Source: an uncultured Rickettsiales bacterium (GTDB lineage Bacteria > Pseudomonadota > Alphaproteobacteria > RF32 > CAG-239). Taken from it: a DNA stretch of 64,000 nt. The stretch is taken from assembly GCA_900551865.1 (NCBI GenBank), contig URXV01000001.1, forward strand, positions 94,743 through 158,742, in the 5' to 3' direction. Each line of letters opens with the position of its first letter. Within the stretch, counting starts at the first letter, position 1. Positions 22,138 through 53,108 of the stretch are shown here, one piece after another. Made by a program: the position numbers and the translations under genes. A model generated the notes under the pieces. That model ran no database searches. It was not told the DNA's origin and saw only the letters and a program-made list of their open reading frames with translations.

Positions 22138-22213
22138 TGGCAGGGGCGGAAGGATTCGAACCCTCGACATTCGGTTTTGGAGACCGACGCTCTACCAACT
22201 GAACTACACCCCT
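22138..22213 (-). tRNA. tRNA-Trp (anticodon CCA)
   Basis: Hand-folded cloverleaf AGGGGTGTAGTTCAGTTGGTAGAGCGTCGGTCTCCAAAACCGA...CCGCCCCTGCCA with anticodon loop CTCCAAA and encoded CCA. It sits upstream of secE as in many bacteria. Confidence 0.9.
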
Positions 22214-35066: not shown

Positions 35067-36686
35067 TCAGGTAACGATGTCCGGCTGCTCTTTGCCGGTG
35101 CGTGAAGTTATTTCGGAAATTTCCCTTGAAACGCGGCAGAGTTCCCGAAGCATATCTTCAGGGTCTTCCTCAAGTTTGTCGGTAACATAGCGTTCAATAT
35201 AGGTGCGCAGTGTAGCGCCGTTGGTTCCGGTTCCGGACAGGCGATAGACAATGCGCGAACCGTCGGTGAAATGTACAATCAGCCCGTTTTGGGTTGAAGT
35301 ATGGTCAACAGGGTCATTATAAACGAACGGATAAGCGTCGGAAACAGTGAAATTCCCGAAAGATTTTCCAGAAAGGGCGGGCAGTTTGGCTTTCAAATCA
35401 GCCATAAGCCTGTCAGCGGTTTCCTGCGGGATGCCTTCAAAGTCGTTGCGGAGATAGTAGCTTCTGCCATATTTCCGCCAGTGATCCAATGCAATTTCCT
35501 TTACGGATTTTCCGGTTTCGGCAATTATGCTGAGCCAGAACAGGGTAGCCCAAATGCCGTCTTTTTCACGGATATGGGCGGCTCCGGCGCCGAAACTTTC
35601 TTCTCCGCAGAAAGTAATGCGGTTGGAATCCATCAGGTGAATAAAGTATTTCCAGCCGGTCGGAACTTCGTAGTAGCCGATTTTCAAAGCATCGGCGACC
35701 CTTTTGACCGCCATTGACGTTGCGGCGGATTTTGCAACGCCGTAAATGCCGTTTTTATATGCGGGAATGAGCTTATAGTTATCGGTTAAAACAGCCAGGC
35801 AGTCGCTGGGGCTGACAAAGAAACCGGAACCGAGAATCATATTGCGGTCGCCGTCTCCGTCATTGGCTGCAGCAAAGTCAGGCGCCGCTTCCGAATACAT
35901 CAGGTCAACGAGGTGTTTGGCATAAATAAGGTTGGGGTCGGGGTGCAGGCCTCCAAAATCCTCCAGCGGAACAGCATTGATAACCGACCCGGCAGGCGCG
36001 CCGAGAATTTCTTCAAAAATTTTTTTGCCGTAAGGGCCGGTAACGCCGTTCATGGCGTCAAAGACAAAACGGAAATCCGATGTCAGCAGTTCTTTCAATT
36101 TGGCGAAATCAAAAATTCCTTCCATCATTTCAATATAGTCGGCAAAAGGGTCAATGACTTCAATTTCCGTATTTTCGCAGCGGGCAGTTCCGACGGTTGA
36201 CAAGTCTATGTCTGGACAGTCGGAAATCCTGTACTCCCTGATGGACAGCGTCTGCTCCTGAATAGCCTGACTTTCCGCCGGCTGGCACTGGCCGCCGGTT
36301 GCCGTGGCATATTTGATGCCGAAGTCGCCGTCAATGCCGCCCGGATTATGCGAGGCGGTCAGGATAAGCCCTCCGTCGAGTTTGTTTTTCAGGATAATGT
36401 GGGAGCCGGCGGGGGTTGACACCAGGCCGTTTTGTCCGACATACAGCTTTTTAACGTTATTGGCTGCCGCTATTTTGATAATTTTTTGGATTGCGGCTTT
36501 ATTCAGGTAACGCCCGTCGCCGCCGACCAGAAAAGATTTTTCCGACAAGTCGGGAATCGTATTGAAAATACTTTGCAGAAAATTTTCAATATAGTTTTCC
36601 TGCATAGCAATCCGGGTCTTTTTCCGCAGGCCTGCGGTACCCATTTTTTGGTCGGTATACGGAGAGGTGGAAACAATTTTTATCAT
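35067..36686 (-). CDS. pgm: Phosphoglucomutase (alpha-D-glucose phosphate-specific)
   Basis: Active-site loop TASHNPGG, 539 aa. Confidence 0.9.
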   Translation of the reverse strand: MIKIVSTSPYTDQKMGTAGLRKKTRIAMQENYIENFLQSIFNTIPDLSEKSFLVGGDGRYLNKAAIQKIIKIAAANNVKKLYVGQNGLVSTPAGSHIILKNKLDGGLILTASHNPGGIDGDFGIKYATATGGQCQPAESQAIQEQTLSIREYRISDCPDIDLSTVGTARCENTEIEVIDPFADYIEMMEGIFDFAKLKELLTSDFRFVFDAMNGVTGPYGKKIFEEILGAPAGSVINAVPLEDFGGLHPDPNLIYAKHLVDLMYSEAAPDFAAANDGDGDRNMILGSGFFVSPSDCLAVLTDNYKLIPAYKNGIYGVAKSAATSMAVKRVADALKIGYYEVPTGWKYFIHLMDSNRITFCGEESFGAGAAHIREKDGIWATLFWLSIIAETGKSVKEIALDHWRKYGRSYYLRNDFEGIPQETADRLMADLKAKLPALSGKSFGNFTVSDAYPFVYNDPVDHTSTQNGLIVHFTDGSRIVYRLSGTGTNGATLRTYIERYVTDKLEEDPEDMLRELCRVSREISEITSRTGKEQPDIVT

Positions 36687-36766
36687 TTGGCTGCCTTTGC
36701 GTTAAAAAAATGTCAAATTTCGGTGCACACGATAAAACAAAAAGCACCGCTTGTAAAGATTATTTA

Positions 36767-37450
36767 TTAGCTGAAAATAAATTCTGCAAGTTTTAAAATT
36801 TCCCGTTTGGCACATATATCTTCATAAGTCAGCTGTTTTGCCAGCTCTGGAAAAATTTGGGGAGAGAGGGCTCTGTCCTGTGCGGATATGCCGGAAACGG
36901 CGTTTTGGTATGGCTGGCGGAAATTCAGCGGCGGCGCGGCACGAAATCCGTAGAGGCGGGACATTTGTGCCAGTTCTGCCGATTGTCGGAGAGGCAGAGA
37001 ACTGTCAGGATTGTTTTCGCAGACAACCCAATTCAGGCTGTGCCTCCGTGTGGCCGCTATGCGTTTTTTTAACTCCCAAACGTCGTTAAGATATGCCTTG
37101 TTTTGTTGAAATTTTTTAATACCGCTTCGGCTATGGCGCAGCAGGGTGATGAACGTTGCCGCATTATCTGCCAATTCATCGGTTGCGGATATTTCCGGGA
37201 TTATTACGGCATCATACGGTGCGGCGGCGAGGGGGAAACTGTTTCGTTCCAGTATGTCCGGCTGGGGCAGGGTTGGAAATTTTTGCCGGCGGTTATTGAA
37301 TGTCTGGCGCAGAGGCGAGTCTTCGTTCAGCAGGACTGCAGTTTTCTGCCGGTTGTAGAGCAACACCAAGGCCAATTCCAAGCATACAGTCTTACGTCCG
37401 GTGTCTTTTTCACCGTTTATGACGACAATGTACGGAATATGTTCGCTCAT
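36767..37450 (-). CDS. ParA/MinD-superfamily-like protein with degenerate Walker A
   Basis: IVVINGEKDTGRKTV occupies the position of the deviant Walker A motif, 227 aa. Confidence 0.4.
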   Translation of the reverse strand: MSEHIPYIVVINGEKDTGRKTVCLELALVLLYNRQKTAVLLNEDSPLRQTFNNRRQKFPTLPQPDILERNSFPLAAAPYDAVIIPEISATDELADNAATFITLLRHSRSGIKKFQQNKAYLNDVWELKKRIAATRRHSLNWVVCENNPDSSLPLRQSAELAQMSRLYGFRAAPPLNFRQPYQNAVSGISAQDRALSPQIFPELAKQLTYEDICAKREILKLAEFIFS

Positions 37451-37456
37451 GACTGA

Positions 37457-38362
37457 CTAACGGCGATATCCTGCCGAAGCGTGGTTGTATGCGGTTTTGG
37501 TTTTTTCGCCGCGCAGAGAACTGTTAATAGCGCTGCGTAGGCTTGCCGTATTAATATTGGGATTCTTTTGCATATAATTTAATGATATTTCCATCATTTT
37601 AGAAATGTTTTCATCCCTCTCTTTGACTTTTTTATGTCCCAGCGTAACGGCGATGACGCGATAGTTTCCCTGCTGGGCGGAGGTCAAAATGTTAAACCCG
37701 GAAGCGGCGGTGTAGCCTGTTTTCATGCCGTCCGTTCCCAGCGAATCGTTTAAGAGGTAGTTGTGGGTTTTGTATGTCATGCCGTTGTATTGAAATTCGT
37801 TTAAAGAGAAGAGGTGATAGTACTGCGGGAAGTGGTGGTATACGGCGGCGCCTAAGATGGCAAGATCTTTGGCGGTTGTTTTTTGAGCGGAGTTCGGCAG
37901 GCCGGAAGCGTTTTTGAATGTTGTGCGGTACATGCCGAGTTTGCGTGCCGTTTTGGTCATCAGTTTGGCAAATTCGGCTTCGCTGGGGCTCAGGGCTTCC
38001 GCTAATACGGTGGCGCAGTCGTTGGCTGATTTGACAATCAGCGCTTCAACGGCTGTCTTGACGTCAATGTATGAACCGGCGGGCATTCCGAGTTTTGACG
38101 GCGAGCGCGACGCAGCGGTGGAAGATACTTTTAATTTGTCGGAAAATTTCAGCTTTCCGGTTTCCAGCGCATTAAACGTTATATAGAGTGTCATCAATTT
38201 GGTCAGAGATGCCGGGTAACGAAGCTCTTCGGCCTTGTCGGCATACAGTACGTTTCCGCTTTGGGCGTCAATAACAATTGAAGACGTGCCTCCGGCTGCA
38301 TTTGCTGCGGTCGCACATCCCAAAGACAACAGAGCTATACATAACGTTTTTAATGCGTTCAT
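37457..38362 (-). CDS. D-alanyl-D-alanine carboxypeptidase (serine peptidase S11)
   Basis: Signal peptide plus SxxK (ASLTK), SxN (SAN) and KTG (KTGYT) motifs. Confidence 0.85.
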   Translation of the reverse strand: MNALKTLCIALLSLGCATAANAAGGTSSIVIDAQSGNVLYADKAEELRYPASLTKLMTLYITFNALETGKLKFSDKLKVSSTAASRSPSKLGMPAGSYIDVKTAVEALIVKSANDCATVLAEALSPSEAEFAKLMTKTARKLGMYRTTFKNASGLPNSAQKTTAKDLAILGAAVYHHFPQYYHLFSLNEFQYNGMTYKTHNYLLNDSLGTDGMKTGYTAASGFNILTSAQQGNYRVIAVTLGHKKVKERDENISKMMEISLNYMQKNPNINTASLRSAINSSLRGEKTKTAYNHASAGYRR

Positions 38363-38517
38363 TTTATGGCGAATCCTTTCATTGTCGTGACTTTCTATAT
38401 AATAGAGATGAAAAAGAAAATAAATTGTTAATTTTATGTTATGAATAAAAAAAAATTGTGTTTTTTTAGCTTGACTTTATAAATAATTGTATGTAAAAGT
38501 TCCAAAGCAAAGTTGAT

Positions 38518-38594
38518 GGCGGACGTAGCTCAGTTGGTAGAGCCCCGGTTTGTGGTACCGGTTGTCGTCGGTTCGAGCCCGATCGTCCGCCCCA
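38518..38594 (+). tRNA. tRNA-His (anticodon GTG) with encoded G-1 and CCA
   Basis: Hand-folded: GGCGGACG acceptor arm with extra 5' G pairing C73, anticodon loop TTGTGGT, T-loop GGTTCGAGC. Confidence 0.9.
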
Positions 38595-39237
38595 TTCTTT
38601 TTTTATAATCCTACATCTTCAAGCCTTTGAAATTGTTTTGTTTCTTTTGGTGGGAGCGAAACAGCGTTTAAACGTATCTGTACAGTAAAGAATCTTGATA
38701 TTATGCAAAGTTTTTTTGTCCCTTAATTGCTCCTAAACTTTTGGAAATAATACGTATTCACTATTTTTTGCGAGTGTTAAAAGCAATCTCATTAGCCGTG
38801 TTAGCCTCACTAGGTTTTGGCTTTTTTCGCCCTGCCCCCTTATTTTCGCCCGCGTTGGGTTAAATGTCCACACTTATTGCGTTAACCCTTTGAAAGTTTG
38901 GGATAGTTTTGTTTTCTTTCAAATAAGTTTTTGATAGTTTGAACTATTGATTGCTTTTTGACGATATTTGCGTTAAAGTTTTCTTGGGTGCGGGAAACTA
39001 CACCCTGAGTGCCTTTTTTAGGTGCAAGAGAGCTGTCGTAAGCTCAAATTGGTGTCGGTGTTAGGATATAACATCGTCAAATTATCGGCTATTCGTGAAT
39101 GGCTGATAGTTAATATATCCCCGATTCATAGCGATATGGTCGGGGAGCTTTTAGCGTATGTCCAAGAACCATATCTTTATCTTTGAAAATATGGTTCTAA
39201 AGGTTAGAAGAATCATTGGCACCAATATGATTTACGA

Positions 39238-39285
39238 ACTCTCCGACCACCTTATAAAAAGGTGGTTATTTTTTAATCGGAGAGT
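39238..39285 (+). promoter_or_regulatory. Nested leader hairpin sequestering the RBS of the downstream lipoprotein gene
   Basis: Outer 9-bp stem ACTCTCCGA/TCGGAGAGT contains the SD GGAGAG. Inner 7-bp stem CCACCTT/AAGGTGG plus TTATTTTTT forms an intrinsic-terminator-like element. Confidence 0.45.
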
Positions 39286-39290
39286 GAAAA

Positions 39291-39935
39291 ATGAATATTG
39301 AAGGATATAAAAGCAAATTAACTGAAACAAAAAAGTCGATAAAGTATAGATATTTTTTGCTATTATCGCTAACACTGTTGTTGGCAGGATGTGAAAGTTT
39401 TAATAATTTTAATGATAAAATTGGCAATCTTAGCAATAAAGTCCAACAAGCATTTAAAACACCATGTGACAGATTAAGTGCTAAAAAGTTTTTAGAACAA
39501 GAATATGAAACAAATGATGTTTTTGCATACTATCGCAAGTTTCAATTAAAATATTCCATAAATTCTGCATATGCTTTGGATACAAGAAATGGCTATTCTT
39601 ATTGCATCATAAATCTTGATTATTCAAGTAATCGGACTGTTTCAAAAATGGTCAATTCTATATTAGGTTCAAAACTTTCAGTAATAAATAGAGGTTTTGG
39701 CGGAATCGACTTGAAATATCAAGAAGATGCCTTAGGCAAAATATACTTTGATGCAGAAAATCCAAGTGATAACTCCTCTTATTTCAAAGATTTTGACAGA
39801 CATTTACGTATGCTTGACCTAAAGCTGAAAAATCAAACTTGTGATTTAGCATATCAGTTTAGATTAGCCGGCGTTGATATAAAAGAAGTCAATGAAAAAT
39901 ATGGATATAAAAATAAATGCACGATTTATGAATAG
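39291..39935 (+). CDS. Hypothetical lipoprotein in a low-GC islet
   Basis: Lipobox LLAGC, about 28-30% GC against roughly 50% background. Confidence 0.55.
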   Translation: MNIEGYKSKLTETKKSIKYRYFLLLSLTLLLAGCESFNNFNDKIGNLSNKVQQAFKTPCDRLSAKKFLEQEYETNDVFAYYRKFQLKYSINSAYALDTRNGYSYCIINLDYSSNRTVSKMVNSILGSKLSVINRGFGGIDLKYQEDALGKIYFDAENPSDNSSYFKDFDRHLRMLDLKLKNQTCDLAYQFRLAGVDIKEVNEKYGYKNKCTIYE

Positions 39936-40031
39936 CGTTGTTTCTTTATTTGCACGATAAGAAACAGCAATTTTGCTCTGGCAATAACAAGACTAATTTT
40001 ATGCAGGTAATTTAGAAAAGGAGAAGTAAAT

Positions 40032-40616
40032 ATGTTAACATTACTTTTGATATTTGGTTTTGTAATAAGTTGTTTTATTATTCCGCCTATGGGACCAATA
40101 GTTTACCTTATTGTTCTTATTATATTTATGGCAGTGTCAAAGATTTTAAAAATTTCCGCATCAACCTCTGCTCACGCATTGAAGACAGTAGCTGATAAAA
40201 CTTCAGAAATGCCAACATGGTTGCCTCTTGCATTGGGGATACCCCTGTTTTTAGGTTTTAATGCTTATTTTTCCTATTTAGGAGCTGATGAAAGTATGGT
40301 TATTTTATCATTCTTCTTTTCGTGCATCATAATTTATCTTGTTAATTGTATTTATAAAAGGCACCTTAGAACGGCATATAATAAATTTCTCTATTCTGCC
40401 ATCGAAGAGCATTTTGACACCCTATCTGCAAAATACAAAGAGTTAGTTTGTGTAGGGGATTATGGTGAAACAATATACGATAAATGGTATAATGAAATAG
40501 AACGCTTTATTGATGGTGTCATAAAAAAACAAAAATCCGGAATTACCCTGTCTGATGAAGAATTAAAGAAATATATTATTGATGAAATTAATATACAACA
40601 CCTTGAACAAAAATAA
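40032..40616 (+). CDS. Hypothetical membrane protein in a low-GC islet
   Basis: Four N-terminal TM helices plus a cytoplasmic C-terminal domain, low GC. Confidence 0.55.
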   Translation: MLTLLLIFGFVISCFIIPPMGPIVYLIVLIIFMAVSKILKISASTSAHALKTVADKTSEMPTWLPLALGIPLFLGFNAYFSYLGADESMVILSFFFSCIIIYLVNCIYKRHLRTAYNKFLYSAIEEHFDTLSAKYKELVCVGDYGETIYDKWYNEIERFIDGVIKKQKSGITLSDEELKKYIIDEINIQHLEQK

Positions 40617-40644
40617 ATTTTCCGTTTTCCGACTCTCTTTGTAA

Positions 40645-40675
40645 CGCGTCACCTTTCTGACGCGCTTTTTATTTT
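40645..40675 (+). terminator. Terminator after the islet genes
   Basis: CGCGTCA-CCTTTC-TGACGCG followed by CTTTTTATTTT. Confidence 0.7.
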
Positions 40676-40738
40676 GTGTATTGATATTGGCTTTACAGGA
40701 TGCGGCAGAACCGGCATATGGGTTTCGGGCTGGTGAGT

Positions 40739-40996
40739 TCAGGTGCCATTTTCTTTTTCTATGTTTTTGATAATGTCGGCCAGTTGGATGTTCAAAGTGT
40801 CTGCAATCATTTTCAGCGTGTAAAGCGTCGGCCTGCGTTCGTGCCGCTCTATGTAACTCAGGGCCGCTTCGGTGATGCCGCATTCTTTGGCCAGCCGATA
40901 ACGGCTGATGTTTTGCCTTATTCTTTCCTGAACAAGCAAATCAACTACTTCATCACTAAATGTCTGGGCTTCGCGTATTTTCATGACGGTTATCAT
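40739..40996 (-). CDS. XRE-family HTH transcriptional regulator
   Basis: HTH segment ISRYRLAKECGITEAALSYIERHERRPTLYTLKMIADTL, 85 aa. Confidence 0.8.
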   Translation of the reverse strand: MITVMKIREAQTFSDEVVDLLVQERIRQNISRYRLAKECGITEAALSYIERHERRPTLYTLKMIADTLNIQLADIIKNIEKENGT

Positions 40997-41004
40997 AAAT
41001 CATC

Positions 41005-41038
41005 TTGACAAATACTATTACTTAACTATAGTTAAGTA
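41005..41038 (+). promoter_or_regulatory. Sigma70-like promoter (TTGACA-16-TATAGT) overlapping a perfect 20-bp palindromic operator
   Basis: TACTTAACTATAGTTAAGTA at 41019-41038 is perfectly self-complementary. The -35 element TTGACA is at 41005-41010. Confidence 0.6.
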
Positions 41039-41091
41039 TATTTTCACCGGTACGAAGTGCCGGTGCGGGACTTTTGGAGGACGGGCTTGCC

Positions 41092-41652
41092 ATGCGGTTG
41101 TATGAAAAAATAAGATGTTTCTTTTTAGGCAGTACGGATATGCTGCTAAAAGATGGGAGATTTGTCATTGATGAATTGTTTTTTAATCGCCGGCTTAAAT
41201 TTCGTGCGTTGAAGCGTTATGAGCTGGGTACGATGAGAGTCGGAAATATAAAATACGGTTCCGGCGCGACAGGGCGTCCGTTAAATGAAGTTTCTCCTTT
41301 TAAATATTTGTTGGGCGATACAGCCGGCTATGACAACTATTGCCGCATGCACAGGCAGGCGCTTCATTATGAGGAAATGGTACCGGAAAAGTACGACGCT
41401 CTTATAAAGAGCATTGAAAATGACGGTTTTGATACAAAATTTGTGATTATTACGGATTTTGACGGAGTTGTGAAAGACGGACAACATCGTTCCTGCTATC
41501 TTTTGTATAAATACGGAGCAGACTATGAGGTTCCTGTATTGAAACTTGAACTGGGCCGGCGCAGCTGGTTTAATAAAGTTATGCGCTATATTTATAAGAA
41601 AAGCGTTGGGTTTGGCCAAAATCAGAAAGCTAGAACGACGGATAGTCGGTAA
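41092..41652 (+). CDS. ParB/sulfiredoxin-like nuclease-domain protein (putative)
   Basis: VIITDFDGVVKDGQHRSCYLL resembles the ParB N-terminal DGxHR motif. GGAGG lies 11 nt upstream of ATG 41092. Confidence 0.45.
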   Translation: MRLYEKIRCFFLGSTDMLLKDGRFVIDELFFNRRLKFRALKRYELGTMRVGNIKYGSGATGRPLNEVSPFKYLLGDTAGYDNYCRMHRQALHYEEMVPEKYDALIKSIENDGFDTKFVIITDFDGVVKDGQHRSCYLLYKYGADYEVPVLKLELGRRSWFNKVMRYIYKKSVGFGQNQKARTTDSR

Positions 41653-42082
41653 TGGTGGGTTGGAGGTTGGGCTGTACGGCCGAGCTGATATCTTTGAGCG
41701 GAATTGATTGAACGTCAATCAAACGGGTTCCTTCCTGATAGATTGTATTTTCAATTTTGTTCTGATAATCCAAAGGGTTCATATCGCGCGGATTGACGGA
41801 TGAGGACTGGCTAACCAAGGGGATTTCAGCCGTATCGGAGATTGGTTCCGAAATATTTGGAATAGCAGGAGGGGTGGCAGAGGGAGCGGAATTTGCCGCT
41901 GGCGATTGGAATTGCGAATTTGGCGAGGGGGCGACATAACCAAAAGGGTTTGGTGCATTTTGGGGCTGCTCGACAGTGATTTCGTTGCGCCCGCCGTCCG
42001 GCGTTGCGGCTGTTCCGATTATTTCGGTCGGTTCGCCCGGAGCGGCGGTAAGAATGATTGAAGTTAAAAGAATTGTCAACAT
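41630..42082 (-). CDS. Hypothetical secreted Pro/Ser-rich protein
   Basis: Signal peptide MLTILLTSIILTAAPG followed by a Pro-rich low-complexity region. Confidence 0.4.
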   Translation of the reverse strand: MLTILLTSIILTAAPGEPTEIIGTAATPDGGRNEITVEQPQNAPNPFGYVAPSPNSQFQSPAANSAPSATPPAIPNISEPISDTAEIPLVSQSSSVNPRDMNPLDYQNKIENTIYQEGTRLIDVQSIPLKDISSAVQPNLQPTITDYPSF

Positions 42083-42463
42083 ATGAATCCCCCGGTTTAT
42101 GCAGTTTGATGTTGCATAATAAATAATAGCTGCCGTTTTAAAATAAAGTGTGTTTTGGCAATTAGCGGCTAAAAAACAGAAAACCGTGTATTTTGTCTAA
42201 ATGTGCATAATCCGAATCTTTGTGCGGGGTTTAAAAGCAAAAATAAATGAATTTTTTTGATTTTTTGTGCATTTTTTTATTGCAATTATAAAATTTAAAT
42301 GTTACAAAGGCAACGCAACAAATGTTAAGGAAGTGTTAACTTTCTTGCGAAACAAATATAACCCATAATGCAGGCTGGTTGTTGCAAAAGTCTGCAGTAA
42401 TTTTTTAAATGGCAAGGCCCATAGCGGTGTTATTTGCCATTTAGTTATAGGAAAAGTGTTAAA

Positions 42464-42775
42464 ATGATGGATACACAAAACATAAGAATCCGCCTCAAGG
42501 CTTTTGACCATCGCCTGCTCGATTTGTCGACAAAGGAGATTGTTCATACGGCTAAAAGAACCGGGGCAAATGTCAGAGGGCCCATCCCTCTTCCGACTAA
42601 AATCGAGAAGTTTACGGTAAACCGTTCTCCTCACGTTGACAAAAAGTCGCGCGAGCAGTTTGAAATCCGTACTCACAAAAGGCTTCTTGATATTGTAGAT
42701 CCTACACCGCAGACCGTTGATGCGCTGATGAAATTAGACTTGGCGGCCGGCGTGAACGTAGAAATTAAGTTATAA
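42464..42775 (+). CDS. rpsJ: 30S ribosomal protein S10
   Basis: [14 protein letters not shown] is canonical S10. Confidence 0.95.
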
Positions 42776-42831
42776 TTTTAATGTTGGTTTTTGAAAGATA
42801 AAATCAACCTATTGAAAAGGAAAAAATAATA

Positions 42832-43554
42832 ATGCGTACTGGTCTTATCGCAAAAAAACTTGGAATGACAAGGATTTTTGAAGCTGACGGCACTCATGTT
42901 CCGGTAACGGTTCTGGCGGTCGAGGGCTTGAAAGTCGTTAATGTCAGAACAAACGAAAAAGACGGATACAGCGCTGTTCAGCTTGGAACAGGAGCTGTGA
43001 AAGCGAAGAATTTGTCGAAGCCGCTGAAGGGCTATTTTACCAAGGTTAATGTTGAGCCGAAGAAGAAAATGGCTGAATTCAGGGTTTCCGAAGACTGTCT
43101 GCTGTCGGTTGGCGACGAATTGTCCGCCGAACATTTTGTGCCGGGGCAATATGTTGATGTATGTGCTAATTCCATCGGTAAAGGATTTGCCGGTGTTATG
43201 AAGCGTCATAACTTTGCCGGTTTGGAAGCGACGCACGGCGTTTCTCTGACGCACCGTTCGCACGGTTCTACGGGACAAAGACAGGATCCGGGCAAGGTAT
43301 TTAAGGGCAAGAAAATGGCCGGGCATATGGGTGATGAACGCGTAACCGTTCAGAACCTGAAAGTTGTTTCGGTTGACGCTTCCCGCGGTTTAATTATGGT
43401 AAAAGGCGGCGTTCCTGGTGCTGAAAATGCATGGGTTCGCGTTACCGATGCCATTAAAAAAACTGCAGACGTCAAACTGCCGATGCCTGCCGGTTTGAAA
43501 AAGGTTGATGAACCTGTTGCAGTTAAAGCTGAAGAAACAGCTGATAATGCATAA
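42832..43554 (+). CDS. rplC: 50S ribosomal protein L3
   Basis: [16 protein letters not shown]... is canonical L3. Confidence 0.95.
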
Positions 43555-43574
43555 GAGATTAAGGAATTTTGAAT

Positions 43575-44195
43575 ATGAAACAGGACATCTTAAATTTAAA
43601 TAATGAAAATGTCGGAAGCATTGAATTAAACGATGCTATTTTCGGGCTTGAAGTCCGTGCCGATGTTTTGCACCGCGTGGTTAATTGGCAGCTTGCCATG
43701 CGCCAGTGCGGCAACCACCAGACCAAAGGGCGTTCCGACGTTGCTTTGACGCCTGCAAAGCCGTTTAAGCAAAAGGGTTCCGGCAACGCACGTCAGGGCA
43801 GCCGCAAAGGTACCCAGTTCAGAAAAGGTGGTATAGTGTTCGGACCGGTTGTCAGAGATCATTCTCATGACCTGACGAAAAAGTTCAGAAAACTTGGTCT
43901 GAAGACAGCTCTTTCGGCAAAAGCCAAAGAAGGAAACCTGATCGTTATTGACGAGGCAAAGCTTGAAAACGCAAAGACGAAAGATTTACTGGCTAAATTG
44001 AACGTCTGCGGTTTGAAAAACTGCCTGTTTATTGACGGTAAGGAAGTTGATGTTAATTTCGCATTGGCAAGCCGCAATATTGCCGGAGTTGACGTACTGC
44101 CGACAATCGGTGCCAATGTGTACGATATTTTGAAGAAAGAGAAGTTGGTATTAACTAAAGAGGCTGTTGCTTGCTTGGAGGAAAGATTACAATGA
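43575..44195 (+). CDS. rplD: 50S ribosomal protein L4
   Basis: L4 family. Its stop overlaps the rplW start (ATGA). Confidence 0.9.
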
Positions 44196-52580: not shown

Positions 52581-53108
52581 GCGAATAGCCCTTTTTGCTT
52601 TAAATGTCCTGAATACAGAAAAACCACCTGAGAGGTGGCCGGGAAGTTCGCAAATCAAATACGATTAAATGATTCTCTAGGCTTTTAAAGTCTGAGACTT
52701 CTGGACATATCCTAAAGCTCCCCGACCTTTTGCAGTCGGGGATATAATCAATTATCAGCCGATTTCAGGCTGGTAATTTTACGATGTTATATCCTGAACA
52801 CCGAATCGTATTAGAGGCTTGCGACAGCCCGCACCGTCTCCGGCACTTGCAGATGTTGCCATCTGCTGTTTGTATATTACCGGGTATTGAATTTTGTGCA
52901 AGTTTTTTTTGCAGGGCGGGTAATAACTTGGTAAAGAAATTGCTTGACAGGCCGAGGTCGGCCTGATATTTTGCTTATGAGCTTGGCAAACGCTCGGAAT
53001 GTCCGCCAAAGGATTCATTGCCATAATGTTTTTTTACATAGATTTCTTGAGACGGCTTATTCAGCCCATCGGGCAGGCGATAAGGTAAGTTGTCGGAAAG
53101 GAATTGCC

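Follow-up and report, generated by a model that had tools for sequence, protein, structure and literature searches.

The window analysed here (64,000 nucleotides of contig URXV01000001.1, from an uncultured Rickettsiales bacterium) contains, directly 3' of a tRNA-His gene, a short islet made up of a non-coding stretch of about 700 bp, two open reading frames (ORF1 and ORF2) and a terminator (Table 1). The islet is the most AT-rich part of the window. Its guanine plus cytosine (GC) content was 32.8%, compared with 46.9% for the window as a whole, and in the GC profile it was the lowest of all 2,069-bp segments (mean 46.9%, standard deviation 3.5%), the next lowest elsewhere being 41.4%. GC content was 27-35% over 39.1-40.6 kb, where the value of about 30% given in a first-pass annotation of the same sequence was borne out, and 36-40% in the first 500 bp of the islet. 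That annotation had placed the islet at 38595-40700, which agreed within 35 bp with the boundaries determined below; the tRNA-His neighbour and a 214-aa lipoprotein with the lipobox LLAGC were both confirmed, and the clean closing terminator that it had described was recovered in a terminator scan as a stem followed by a T-tract. Positions are those of the window unless preceded by an L number, which designates a locus in another genome or contig.

The islet, its empty site and its intact relatives

To find relatives of the locus, the D-Ala-D-Ala carboxypeptidase encoded in its flank was searched for in a set of genomes that held a single representative of each species. In the GTDB representative of the window's species (L019; MNTT01000015.1, deposited as 'Acetobacter sp. 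46_36'), window positions 36001-38596 and 40666-44000 aligned at 96% identity and the islet was absent exactly, its place being taken by a 28-bp stretch with the tRNA-His terminator hairpin. As the L019 flanks align with only these 28 bp between them, the islet corresponds to exactly 38597-40665 and is polymorphic within the species-level cluster. Nine same-species metagenome contigs (L010-L018), which were retrieved by searching with the islet's own proteins, carried the islet collinearly, with the same junctions and at 98.2-99.0% identity. A second species (L047) had the same empty layout as L019, and among 18 related species the dacC-rpsJ interval ranged from 0.7 to 5.3 kb, the tRNA-His-rpsJ interval being compact in most of them. 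Because L047 is empty and the dacC-rpsJ distance is variable, the compact state was regarded as ancestral and the tRNA-His 3' flank as an insertion hotspot. The presence of the same genes at the same place in all relatives, which would have spoken against an insertion, was not what the cross-genome comparison returned (L019 and L047 being empty), and the earlier suggestion of an old, decayed insertion at tRNA-His gained support both from the empty site in L019 and from intact relatives with an integrase and tRNA-derived attachment (att) repeats.

These relatives were identified by tracing homologs of ORF1 and ORF2 to their encoding contigs, which revealed small islands in other gut Alphaproteobacteria. 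Intact islands were 7-9 kb long, and the islet was 75-83% identical to parts of them, compared with only about 71% identity at the DNA level between core genes of the island hosts and the window. Their full layout comprised a full tRNA, a conserved non-coding block (module A), in some a leader RNA, cargo genes, a DUF6150 gene (called 'Septknot' by the precomputed annotation) and a PrimPol/D5-type helicase, then a small ORF and a tyrosine integrase, and finally a partial-tRNA repeat. In L001-L006 and L099 the order was full tRNA-Trp, module A, either a GHKL-ATPase-like protein or different genes, a helix-turn-helix (HTH) regulator, an ORF1 homolog, an ORF2 homolog, DUF6150, PrimPol with a DUF3987 helicase, the small ORF, the tyrosine integrase and 41 nt of partial tRNA-Trp. 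Intact elements with an integrase and tRNA-derived att repeats were found at tRNA-His (L040 and L043) and at tRNA-Trp (L001-L009 and L099); the former two had their boundary marked by a further copy of the tRNA-His 3' 49 nt (L040 2459-2411; L043 599-552), and the att repeat of L001 and L007 consisted of 41 nt of tRNA-Trp. In L103/L104, DNA directly 3' of tRNA-His was collinear with window positions 38462-40579 (75% identity to L103, 82% over the non-coding part) and was followed by DUF6150 and PrimPol. Positions 38411-39291 were 75% identical to L040, positions 39307-40643 were 81% identical to L001 9303-10625 (the ORF1-ORF2 cassette being 81-83% identical to L001, L099 and L100), and positions 38714-38910 matched L001 6321-6516. 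The island integrase matched phrog_1 and the primase-helicase matched PHROG families. Because His-type and Trp-type integrases were 66% identical and their PrimPols 63%, the islands form one element family with differing target specificities. They were AT-rich also where the host is richer in GC: the L001 island had 33.5% GC, compared with about 50% in its host flanks, and the genome of L040 itself had 34%. No PrimPol related to that of the islands was found in IMG/VR.

The genes carried by the sister islands look defence-like: they code for PD-(D/E)XK nucleases, an ATPase of the GHKL type, a DEDDh exonuclease and ankyrin proteins, and PADLOC gave weak candidate hits. In another species, L100-L102 (at tRNA-Trp) represented an independent integrase-less remnant that had kept ORF1, ORF2 and DUF6150, which suggests that the cargo tends to outlive the element.

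At the left junction, the position was identical to the attL of the intact elements; island DNA starts right after the tRNA, as in L040 and L103, and the junction is therefore a normal attL. The right junction was resolved by a three-way comparison of the window with an island (L099) and the empty site (L019). Island homology to L099 ran through the ORF2 terminator stem and stopped at ...GCGCGC, and chromosomal homology resumed at TTTTTATTTTG, the window following L019 from the next base onward (TTTTTATTTTGT...). The chromosomal sequence at this point is the T-tract of the tRNA-His terminator in L019. No remnant of an integrase, PrimPol or DUF6150 was detected in the window by tblastn (none at E < 0.1; best integrase match E = 5.9), and no second copy of the tRNA-His 3' end was found in it with up to 3 mismatches or by short-word BLAST, in line with the first-pass annotation, which had seen neither an integrase nor an att repeat. 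Because intact relatives have both, their absence from the window is explained by deletion.

By these comparisons the islet is demonstrably foreign DNA, polymorphic within the species, and represents the arm next to the tRNA in a family of integrative elements 7-9 kb long. As the two junctions indicate, one such element would have entered the 3' half of tRNA-His by site-specific recombination, and a later single deletion would have brought the stem of the ORF2 terminator up against the T-tract that had belonged to the tRNA-His terminator. The deletion would have taken DUF6150, PrimPol, the integrase, attR and the original hairpin, leaving a hybrid terminator and, with the mobility genes lost, an immobile remnant. 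The surviving transcription unit would run from a promoter-like site through a leader RNA of about 290 nt, ORF1 and ORF2 to the hybrid terminator. In terms of sequence relationship, the islet is thus a remnant of a family member by descent and not a functional member, as it has no integrase, att repeat or replication gene. Overall, the combination of element origin, deletion, an attenuated operon and retained cargo is quite probably the best explanation of the locus. With regard to the origin, two observations count against it. Microhomology at the right junction was limited to C/TT and similar T-runs, and none of the sampled elements had the exact parental structure (tRNA-His type, with ORF1 and an unfused ORF2). 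As the breakpoint microhomology is short, we infer the deletion mechanism rather than regard it as proven, and as the exact parental structure is not among the sampled relatives, the islet is a mosaic relative to them.

An alternative origin is that the islet was imported already truncated, having been acquired from a different strain or species through recombination, homologous or illegitimate, with no integration and deletion in situ. The right junction, which is not site-specific, the mosaic composition (non-coding part closest to L103, genes closest to L001, L099 and L100) and the existence of integrase-less remnants elsewhere (L100-L102) would agree with such an import, which is nonetheless improbable, because the 196 bp to the left of the islet, tRNA included, were 100% identical to the empty-site strain, giving no sign of an imported left flank, and because the left junction falls exactly at the attL position of the intact elements. 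The end product and the functional conclusions are the same under either origin. That the region is ancestral, merely AT-rich and lost by deletion in L019 is already contradicted and hardly credible: although nine of the nine retrieved same-species contigs carried the islet (having been searched for with its proteins), L019 keeps an intact tRNA terminator hairpin that the window does not have, L047 from another species has the empty layout and most related species are compact at tRNA-His-rpsJ, identity to integrase-bearing islands at a different tRNA was 75-83% with host core genes at about 71%, and the GC content lies 14 points below that of the host.

Table 1. Features of the islet and of related sequences in the window and in sister islands
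Feature	Position	Strand	Size	Remarks
tRNA-His (GTG)	38519-38594	+		ARAGORN; Rfam tRNA, 62 bits; integration target
Islet	38597-40665		2,069 bp	32.8% GC; boundaries from empty-site alignment
Module A	38714-38919	+		Conserved non-coding block at the integrase-distal, full-tRNA end of every family island
Copies of the module A motif in integrase genes	L001 14658-14709; L007 14663-14722; L040 3021-3078; L043 1166-1216			
Promoter-like site TTGCTT-17 nt-TAAAGT	38951-38979	+		Read from sequence; predicted transcript start about 38986
Structured leader RNA 'B'	38986-39277	+		z = -8.1; nhmmer E = 4e-89
ORF1	39291-39935	+	214 aa	Predicted lipoprotein
ORF2	40032-40616	+	194 aa	Predicted inner-membrane protein
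Hybrid terminator and right junction	40645-40676	+		Stem 40645-40664 from island; T-tract from 40666 chromosomal
HTH_3 regulator	40739-40996	-		Missing from most related species
Protein with DGQHRS motif	41074-41652	+	192 aa	Missing from most related species
Pro/Ser-rich protein	41630-42082	-	150 aa	
Second leader copy	52612-52853	-		nhmmer E = 1.2e-34; ordinary-GC DNA, outside the islet; in the 32-sequence alignment
Signal-peptide protein gene	52580-52143	-	145 aa	Downstream of the second leader copy; no Pfam hit

The tRNA-Trp islands were found to duplicate the 5' 41 nt of the tRNA, with the partial copy next to the integrase and the intact tRNA at the opposite end (L001 6074-6149 and 15257-15297; L007 8303-8378 and 15266-15306). 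The partial 5' copy beside the integrase places the element 5' of tRNA-Trp, where it supplies the 5' half of the gene and its upstream region. Integrases that are 66% identical thus use opposite tRNA halves, the 3' half (49 nt) of tRNA-His and the 5' half of tRNA-Trp. In surveys of tRNA integration sites, integration into the 5' half is unusual.

Non-coding part of the islet: leader RNA and module A

The first-pass annotation had called the whole 700-bp non-coding stretch highly structured. This held only for approximately 38986-39277, which folded at -112.6 kcal/mol compared with -70.9 +/- 5.1 kcal/mol for shuffled sequences (z = -8.1, computed over 38990-39295), and not for 38700-38930 (z = 0.0); that these last 290 nt or so belong to a widespread leader-RNA family had been missed. 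The RNA consists of a 5' hairpin, P0, a long closing helix (P1) round a multi-way junction (P2, P3, P4 and P5) and an intrinsic terminator at 39245-39267 with a U-tract, 24 nt before the ORF1 start codon; P4 is invariant (AUCCCCGA/UCGGGGA). In the window copy, CUCUCCGA (39238-39245) can pair with UCGGAGAG (39278-39285), covering the ORF1 Shine-Dalgarno sequence, and an invariant CUCUCC just upstream of the terminator stem can pair with the Shine-Dalgarno GGAGAG itself. The promoter-like site in front of the leader occurs at the same position in L040 (TTGCTT...TACAGT), and in most other leader loci the -35/-10 pairs, which lie 50-60 nt upstream of the core of the RNA, are clearer.

The leader was modelled with an nhmmer profile and MAFFT/RNAalifold alignments. 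A metagenome scan with a pattern from the invariant hairpin returned at least 119 stretches, and among the stretches examined the profile (built from 5 homologs) recognised 112 instances (E from 1e-88 to 3e-6), nearly all from human or animal gut samples. As judged by these matches, it is a family of at least 100 metagenomic members, with two copies in the window; the second copy lies just after a ribosomal-protein operon, behind a promoter-like site (TTGCAC-17-TAATAT). Covariation was assessed in 32 representatives with less than 90% mutual identity, and in a smaller alignment of 5 sequences. For the 32 representatives, RNAalifold gave 69 pairs, which make up the closing helix, four hairpins at a multi-way junction and, behind them, the terminator. 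Compensatory double changes were present in 34 of the 69 pairs, and four consecutive P1 pairs each showed 4-5 Watson-Crick types. Altogether 96.5% of cells were paired, compared with 34-46% in slid controls (partner column moved by 1-3 positions), and double-change cells numbered 254, compared with 22-45 in slid and 78 in shuffled controls; none of 500 shuffles reached any of the observed measures. The predicted fold is thus real. The terminator stem and U-tract were conserved in 32 of 32 representatives. With Rfam 15 (4,227 models), only tRNA was recognised in the window at gathering thresholds, with no leader match, and nothing relevant was found over 38500-39400 at E <= 5 or at 12 other leader loci at E <= 1. 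The RNA was not found described in literature searches.

In 107 of the 112 instances an ORF was called downstream of the RNA (in the other five, none was). Most of these (100 of 107) start 3-46 nt past the RNA 3' end on the same strand, and four start at 117-131 nt. Autotransporters were the commonest, and the others included outer-membrane beta-barrel proteins/porins, lipoproteins, prepilin-like proteins, a BspA-type leucine-rich repeat (LRR) protein, secreted PLD-type and SNase-type nucleases, an Ank-DUF805 membrane protein, capsule-type glycosyltransferases, an AlgX-like acetyltransferase and a few cytoplasmic accessory proteins (DNA methylase, PD-(D/E)XK nucleases). The N-terminus was hydrophobic, as scored by a crude hydropathy measure, in about 70% of the distinct proteins encoded downstream, compared with 45% of the long ORFs of the window. 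The position of the leader before so many surface genes suggests a surface-proteome regulon. The leader also precedes the first cargo gene in tRNA-His and tRNA-Trp islands (L040, L103, L146), and it was found in three IMG/VR contigs (L224 9404-9592, L225 1822-2088, L226 3114-3302) and in a 7.5-kb faecal 'Bacteriophage sp.' record (L227, MT837206.1, 4903-5091). The same record gave the single match of the islet in a phage collection, 50 nt long and falling in the P4 region of the leader; BLAST of the islet against a plasmid collection gave no match.

In the window and in most family members, only a Shine-Dalgarno sequence fits between the leader terminator and the start codon. There being no room for a promoter before the start codon, the genes would be expressed only by read-through of the terminator, and the leader is therefore probably a conditional terminator (attenuator). 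In the islet it would act as an attenuator of the ORF1-ORF2 operon, and the window copy could also sequester the ribosome-binding site. Such an RNA resembles terminator-type riboswitches and attenuator leaders, which likewise have a conserved, structured 5' leader with conserved junction nucleotides and a terminator directly after it. Cyclic di-GMP (c-di-GMP) riboswitches precede adhesin and pilus genes, put and EAR are processive-antitermination RNAs, and JUMPstart/ops sequences lead surface-polysaccharide operons. The present leader is also similar to them in being many-copied upstream of genes for surface and secreted proteins, but at about 230-290 nt and with a five-helix junction it is larger than c-di-GMP aptamers, and the expression platform of the family is nearly invariant, unlike that of terminator-type riboswitches and attenuators. 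By analogy, the RNA works like a terminator-type leader yet belongs to no catalogued family.

On a broader reading, the leader would belong to a class of signal-responsive attenuators that is new, working either as a riboswitch or as an antitermination RNA that depends on a factor; it would define a surface and secreted regulon in uncultured gut Alphaproteobacteria and would have been captured by mobile islands and phage-like elements for control of their cargo. This reading is possible but falls somewhat short of an even chance. Against the attenuator model of the window leader itself count its promoter, which matches the consensus poorly, and the energetics of the one candidate switch. A 10-bp complementarity between GGUCGGGGAG (the 3' strand of P4) and CUCUCCGACC was present in 31 of 32 representatives, with both strands invariant and no covariation, and forcing this antiterminator in constrained folding cost +15 to +20 kcal/mol relative to the ground state; the helix does not make a convincing switch. 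The RNA could instead be an independent small RNA gene that ends at its own terminator, with the downstream genes expressed separately. The strong intrinsic terminator and U-tract that end the RNA in each of the 32 representatives would be expected of such a gene, as would a folded, terminating form that is the thermodynamic ground state, whereas start codons lying 3-46 nt beyond the RNA on the same strand in 100 of 107 cases, with only a Shine-Dalgarno sequence between, and the association of the RNA with unrelated downstream genes make a free-standing small RNA unlikely. The two roles are not mutually exclusive, as a terminated leader can also act in trans.

Two further observations were made at leader loci. 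A palindrome, TTAATTGCAA(A)TTAA, was seen at many of them, mostly of the autotransporter type, with one copy overlapping the -35 region upstream of the leader (L135, L161, L210, L140, L117) and a second between the leader terminator and the Shine-Dalgarno sequence (L211, L219, L135, L134); a transcription factor common to these loci may use it as an operator. In MT837206.1, the leader precedes a PLD-type nuclease gene beside a large serine recombinase.

Upstream of the leader, module A was 73-88% identical to its counterparts in L001, L007, L043, L099, L100 and L103 and 66% identical to that in L059, and its alignment had blocks of conservation but no codon periodicity. Within it, at 38785-38814, lies a 30-bp motif, AAACCTCATTAGCCGCRTTAGCCTCATTAG (CTCATTAG...CTCACTAG), and an inverted copy of this motif was present inside the integrase ORF of each intact island (Table 1). 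The possibility that module A is an integrase pseudogene, raised by 53 nt matching the interior of the integrase, was rejected since the block is conserved in all intact islands and has no codon periodicity, and the motif it carries is, on these grounds, more likely a repeated binding motif. A structured RNA was likewise rejected for module A, given its fold score of zero. Module A is probably a set of protein-binding sites (att arm, regulatory or replication origin) that is now orphaned. The part of the 700-bp stretch outside the leader is, by its alignments to the islands, conserved island backbone, which the first-pass annotation had likewise missed. In an excised circle the two copies of the motif would flank attP.

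The cargo proteins ORF1 and ORF2

By its lipobox, ORF1 is a predicted bacterial lipoprotein. Residues 21-34 read YFLLLSLTLLLAGC, with the lipobox LLAG|C (consensus [LVI][ASTVI][GAS]C) at 30-34 and a hydrophobic segment at 21-37; the lipobox Cys was invariant in 6 of 6 homologs, and four further Cys were conserved in the mature part. The match to Pfam LPAM_1 was sub-threshold (14.2 bits, compared with a cut-off of 20). In ORF2, residues 1-44 and 85-109 are strongly hydrophobic and residues 63-82 more weakly so; a charged, helical C-terminal domain of about 85 aa comes after them, and the protein is predicted from this profile to be a polytopic inner-membrane protein with 3-4 transmembrane (TM) helices and a cytoplasmic helical tail. 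The first-pass description of a 194-aa membrane protein with a cytoplasmic tail therefore stood, its four TM helices becoming three or four. The L103 protein combines the ORF2 module with SHOCT, one more TM segment and ankyrin repeats in a single fusion.

ORF1 had 6 homologs and ORF2 10-13 among 5.8 billion protein clusters. When the ORF1 alignment was used for an exhaustive HMMER search of 1.84 billion representative proteins, its own family alone was recovered (3 hits), and a word-index profile search with ORF2 returned 13 proteins, all of its own family; by this distribution, ORF1 and ORF2 are clade-restricted orphan families. Neither gave anything above threshold in Pfam, NCBIfam, PHROGs or PADLOC, the sub-threshold NCBIfam matches of ORF1 (TrbK, 13.7 bits with a cut-off of 23; TrsH/TraH, 18.9 with a cut-off of 150) covering the signal peptide and lipobox only. 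Structure prediction, which had been proposed for both proteins, was of limited help. The AlphaFold2 model of ORF1 (predicted local distance difference test (pLDDT) score 63, predicted template modelling (pTM) score 0.55) had no Foldseek match in the PDB at E <= 0.001, and that of ORF2 (pLDDT 44) was unusable. Between islands, the ratio of non-synonymous to synonymous substitution rates (dN/dS) was 0.19-0.31 for ORF1 and 0.19-0.36 for ORF2, and this purifying selection indicates that both encode real proteins.

F-plasmid TraT is an outer-membrane lipoprotein and TraS a small polytopic inner-membrane protein; phages encode the lipoproteins Llp and Cor, and phage T4 the proteins Imm and Sp. ORF1 and ORF2 share the architecture of TraT/TraS-type exclusion pairs, a lipoprotein of about 200 aa and a small multi-TM protein side by side as cargo of a mobile element. 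They have no sequence similarity to exclusion proteins (NCBIfam, PHROG, PADLOC) and ORF1 has no fold match, so that the likeness is one of analogy and not of homology. On this analogy, and on that with phage Sie systems, it is tentatively suggested that the pair acts at the envelope in exclusion of, or immunity to, phage, mobile DNA or toxins that arrive from outside, as a protective module that the host would have retained after the mobility genes were lost. Several results speak against such a function. No homology evidence on the role of either protein came from Pfam, NCBIfam, PHROGs, PADLOC or the PDB fold search with ORF1. In addition, ORF2 of the window differed from the copy in L010 (10001-10594) by 14 substitutions, nearly all non-synonymous (dN 0.030, dS 0.004), and carried a 9-bp deletion (KIF) of three codons that are kept in all other homologs, with ORF1 and the flanks differing by about 1%. 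From this small sample, the within-species divergence of ORF2 would fit either relaxed constraint or diversifying selection, and ORF2 may be drifting rather than maintained.

The main alternative, nearly as probable, is that the pair is a secreted or surface colonisation factor with a membrane partner, such as a lipoprotein for adhesion or for remodelling of the envelope, used by the host like the other leader-borne genes. The company that the leader keeps elsewhere (autotransporters, pilin-like proteins, porins, BspA-LRR, secreted nucleases and capsule glycosyltransferases) and the lipobox and four conserved Cys of ORF1 would suit a colonisation factor. Against this role speak the tRNA-Trp islands, in which ORF1-ORF2 occurs without the leader, beside an HTH regulator and among defence-like cargo, and the finding that the family was in island contexts in every case examined.

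Related element systems and neighbouring loci

Tycheposons are tRNA-targeting cargo elements of Prochlorococcus with a tyrosine integrase of about 1 kb and a primase/helicase module of 2-4 kb; they are flanked by a full and a partial tRNA, their integrases cluster by target tRNA, and degenerated remnants of them accumulate in tRNA-linked islands (Hackl et al., bioRxiv 10.1101/2020.12.28.424599). Compared by layout, the gut islands are alike in general arrangement, tRNA targeting, flanking tRNAs, target-clustered integrases and remnants, and differ in their hosts (gut Alphaproteobacteria) and in their cargo, which is envelope- and defence-like as opposed to serving nutrient acquisition. The window copy has none of the tycheposon hallmark genes. 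P4-like satellites, as well as phage-inducible chromosomal islands (PICIs), have been described as small integrative elements with an integrase, a primase-helicase and a cargo slot that is often anti-phage (Rousset et al. 2022, PMC9122126; P4-like survey, PMC8628076). The gut islands share with them the integrase, the primase-helicase and the variable cargo slot; Psu, Sid, Delta, AlpA, terS and capsid-remodelling genes were not among the Pfam/PHROG hits of the island genes.

The islet itself represents an ordinary outcome, in which mobility genes were lost and cargo was kept, and it is a clean example, with base-pair boundaries, an isogenic empty site and intact relatives, of how tRNA-linked variable regions build up in little-known gut bacteria. 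The leader RNA is the more valuable result, being large, strongly covarying, without an Rfam entry and placed in front of surface-display genes. If it is indeed a riboswitch or antitermination element, it would provide a handle on the regulation of surface proteins in an uncultured lineage and a candidate new RNA class for ligand hunting.

The tRNA-Trp-secE-nusG locus of the window (tRNA-Trp at 22138-22213, minus strand), which is the target of the sister islands, was unoccupied; in L001-type genomes tRNA-Trp is inverted relative to secE. The stretch between the islet and rpsJ (40666-42400) had a GC content of 42.5% and contained three genes, all present in the empty-site L019 (Table 1), of which the one with the DGQHRS motif may be ParB-nuclease-like. 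This stretch is probably an older layer of the same tRNA-His hotspot.

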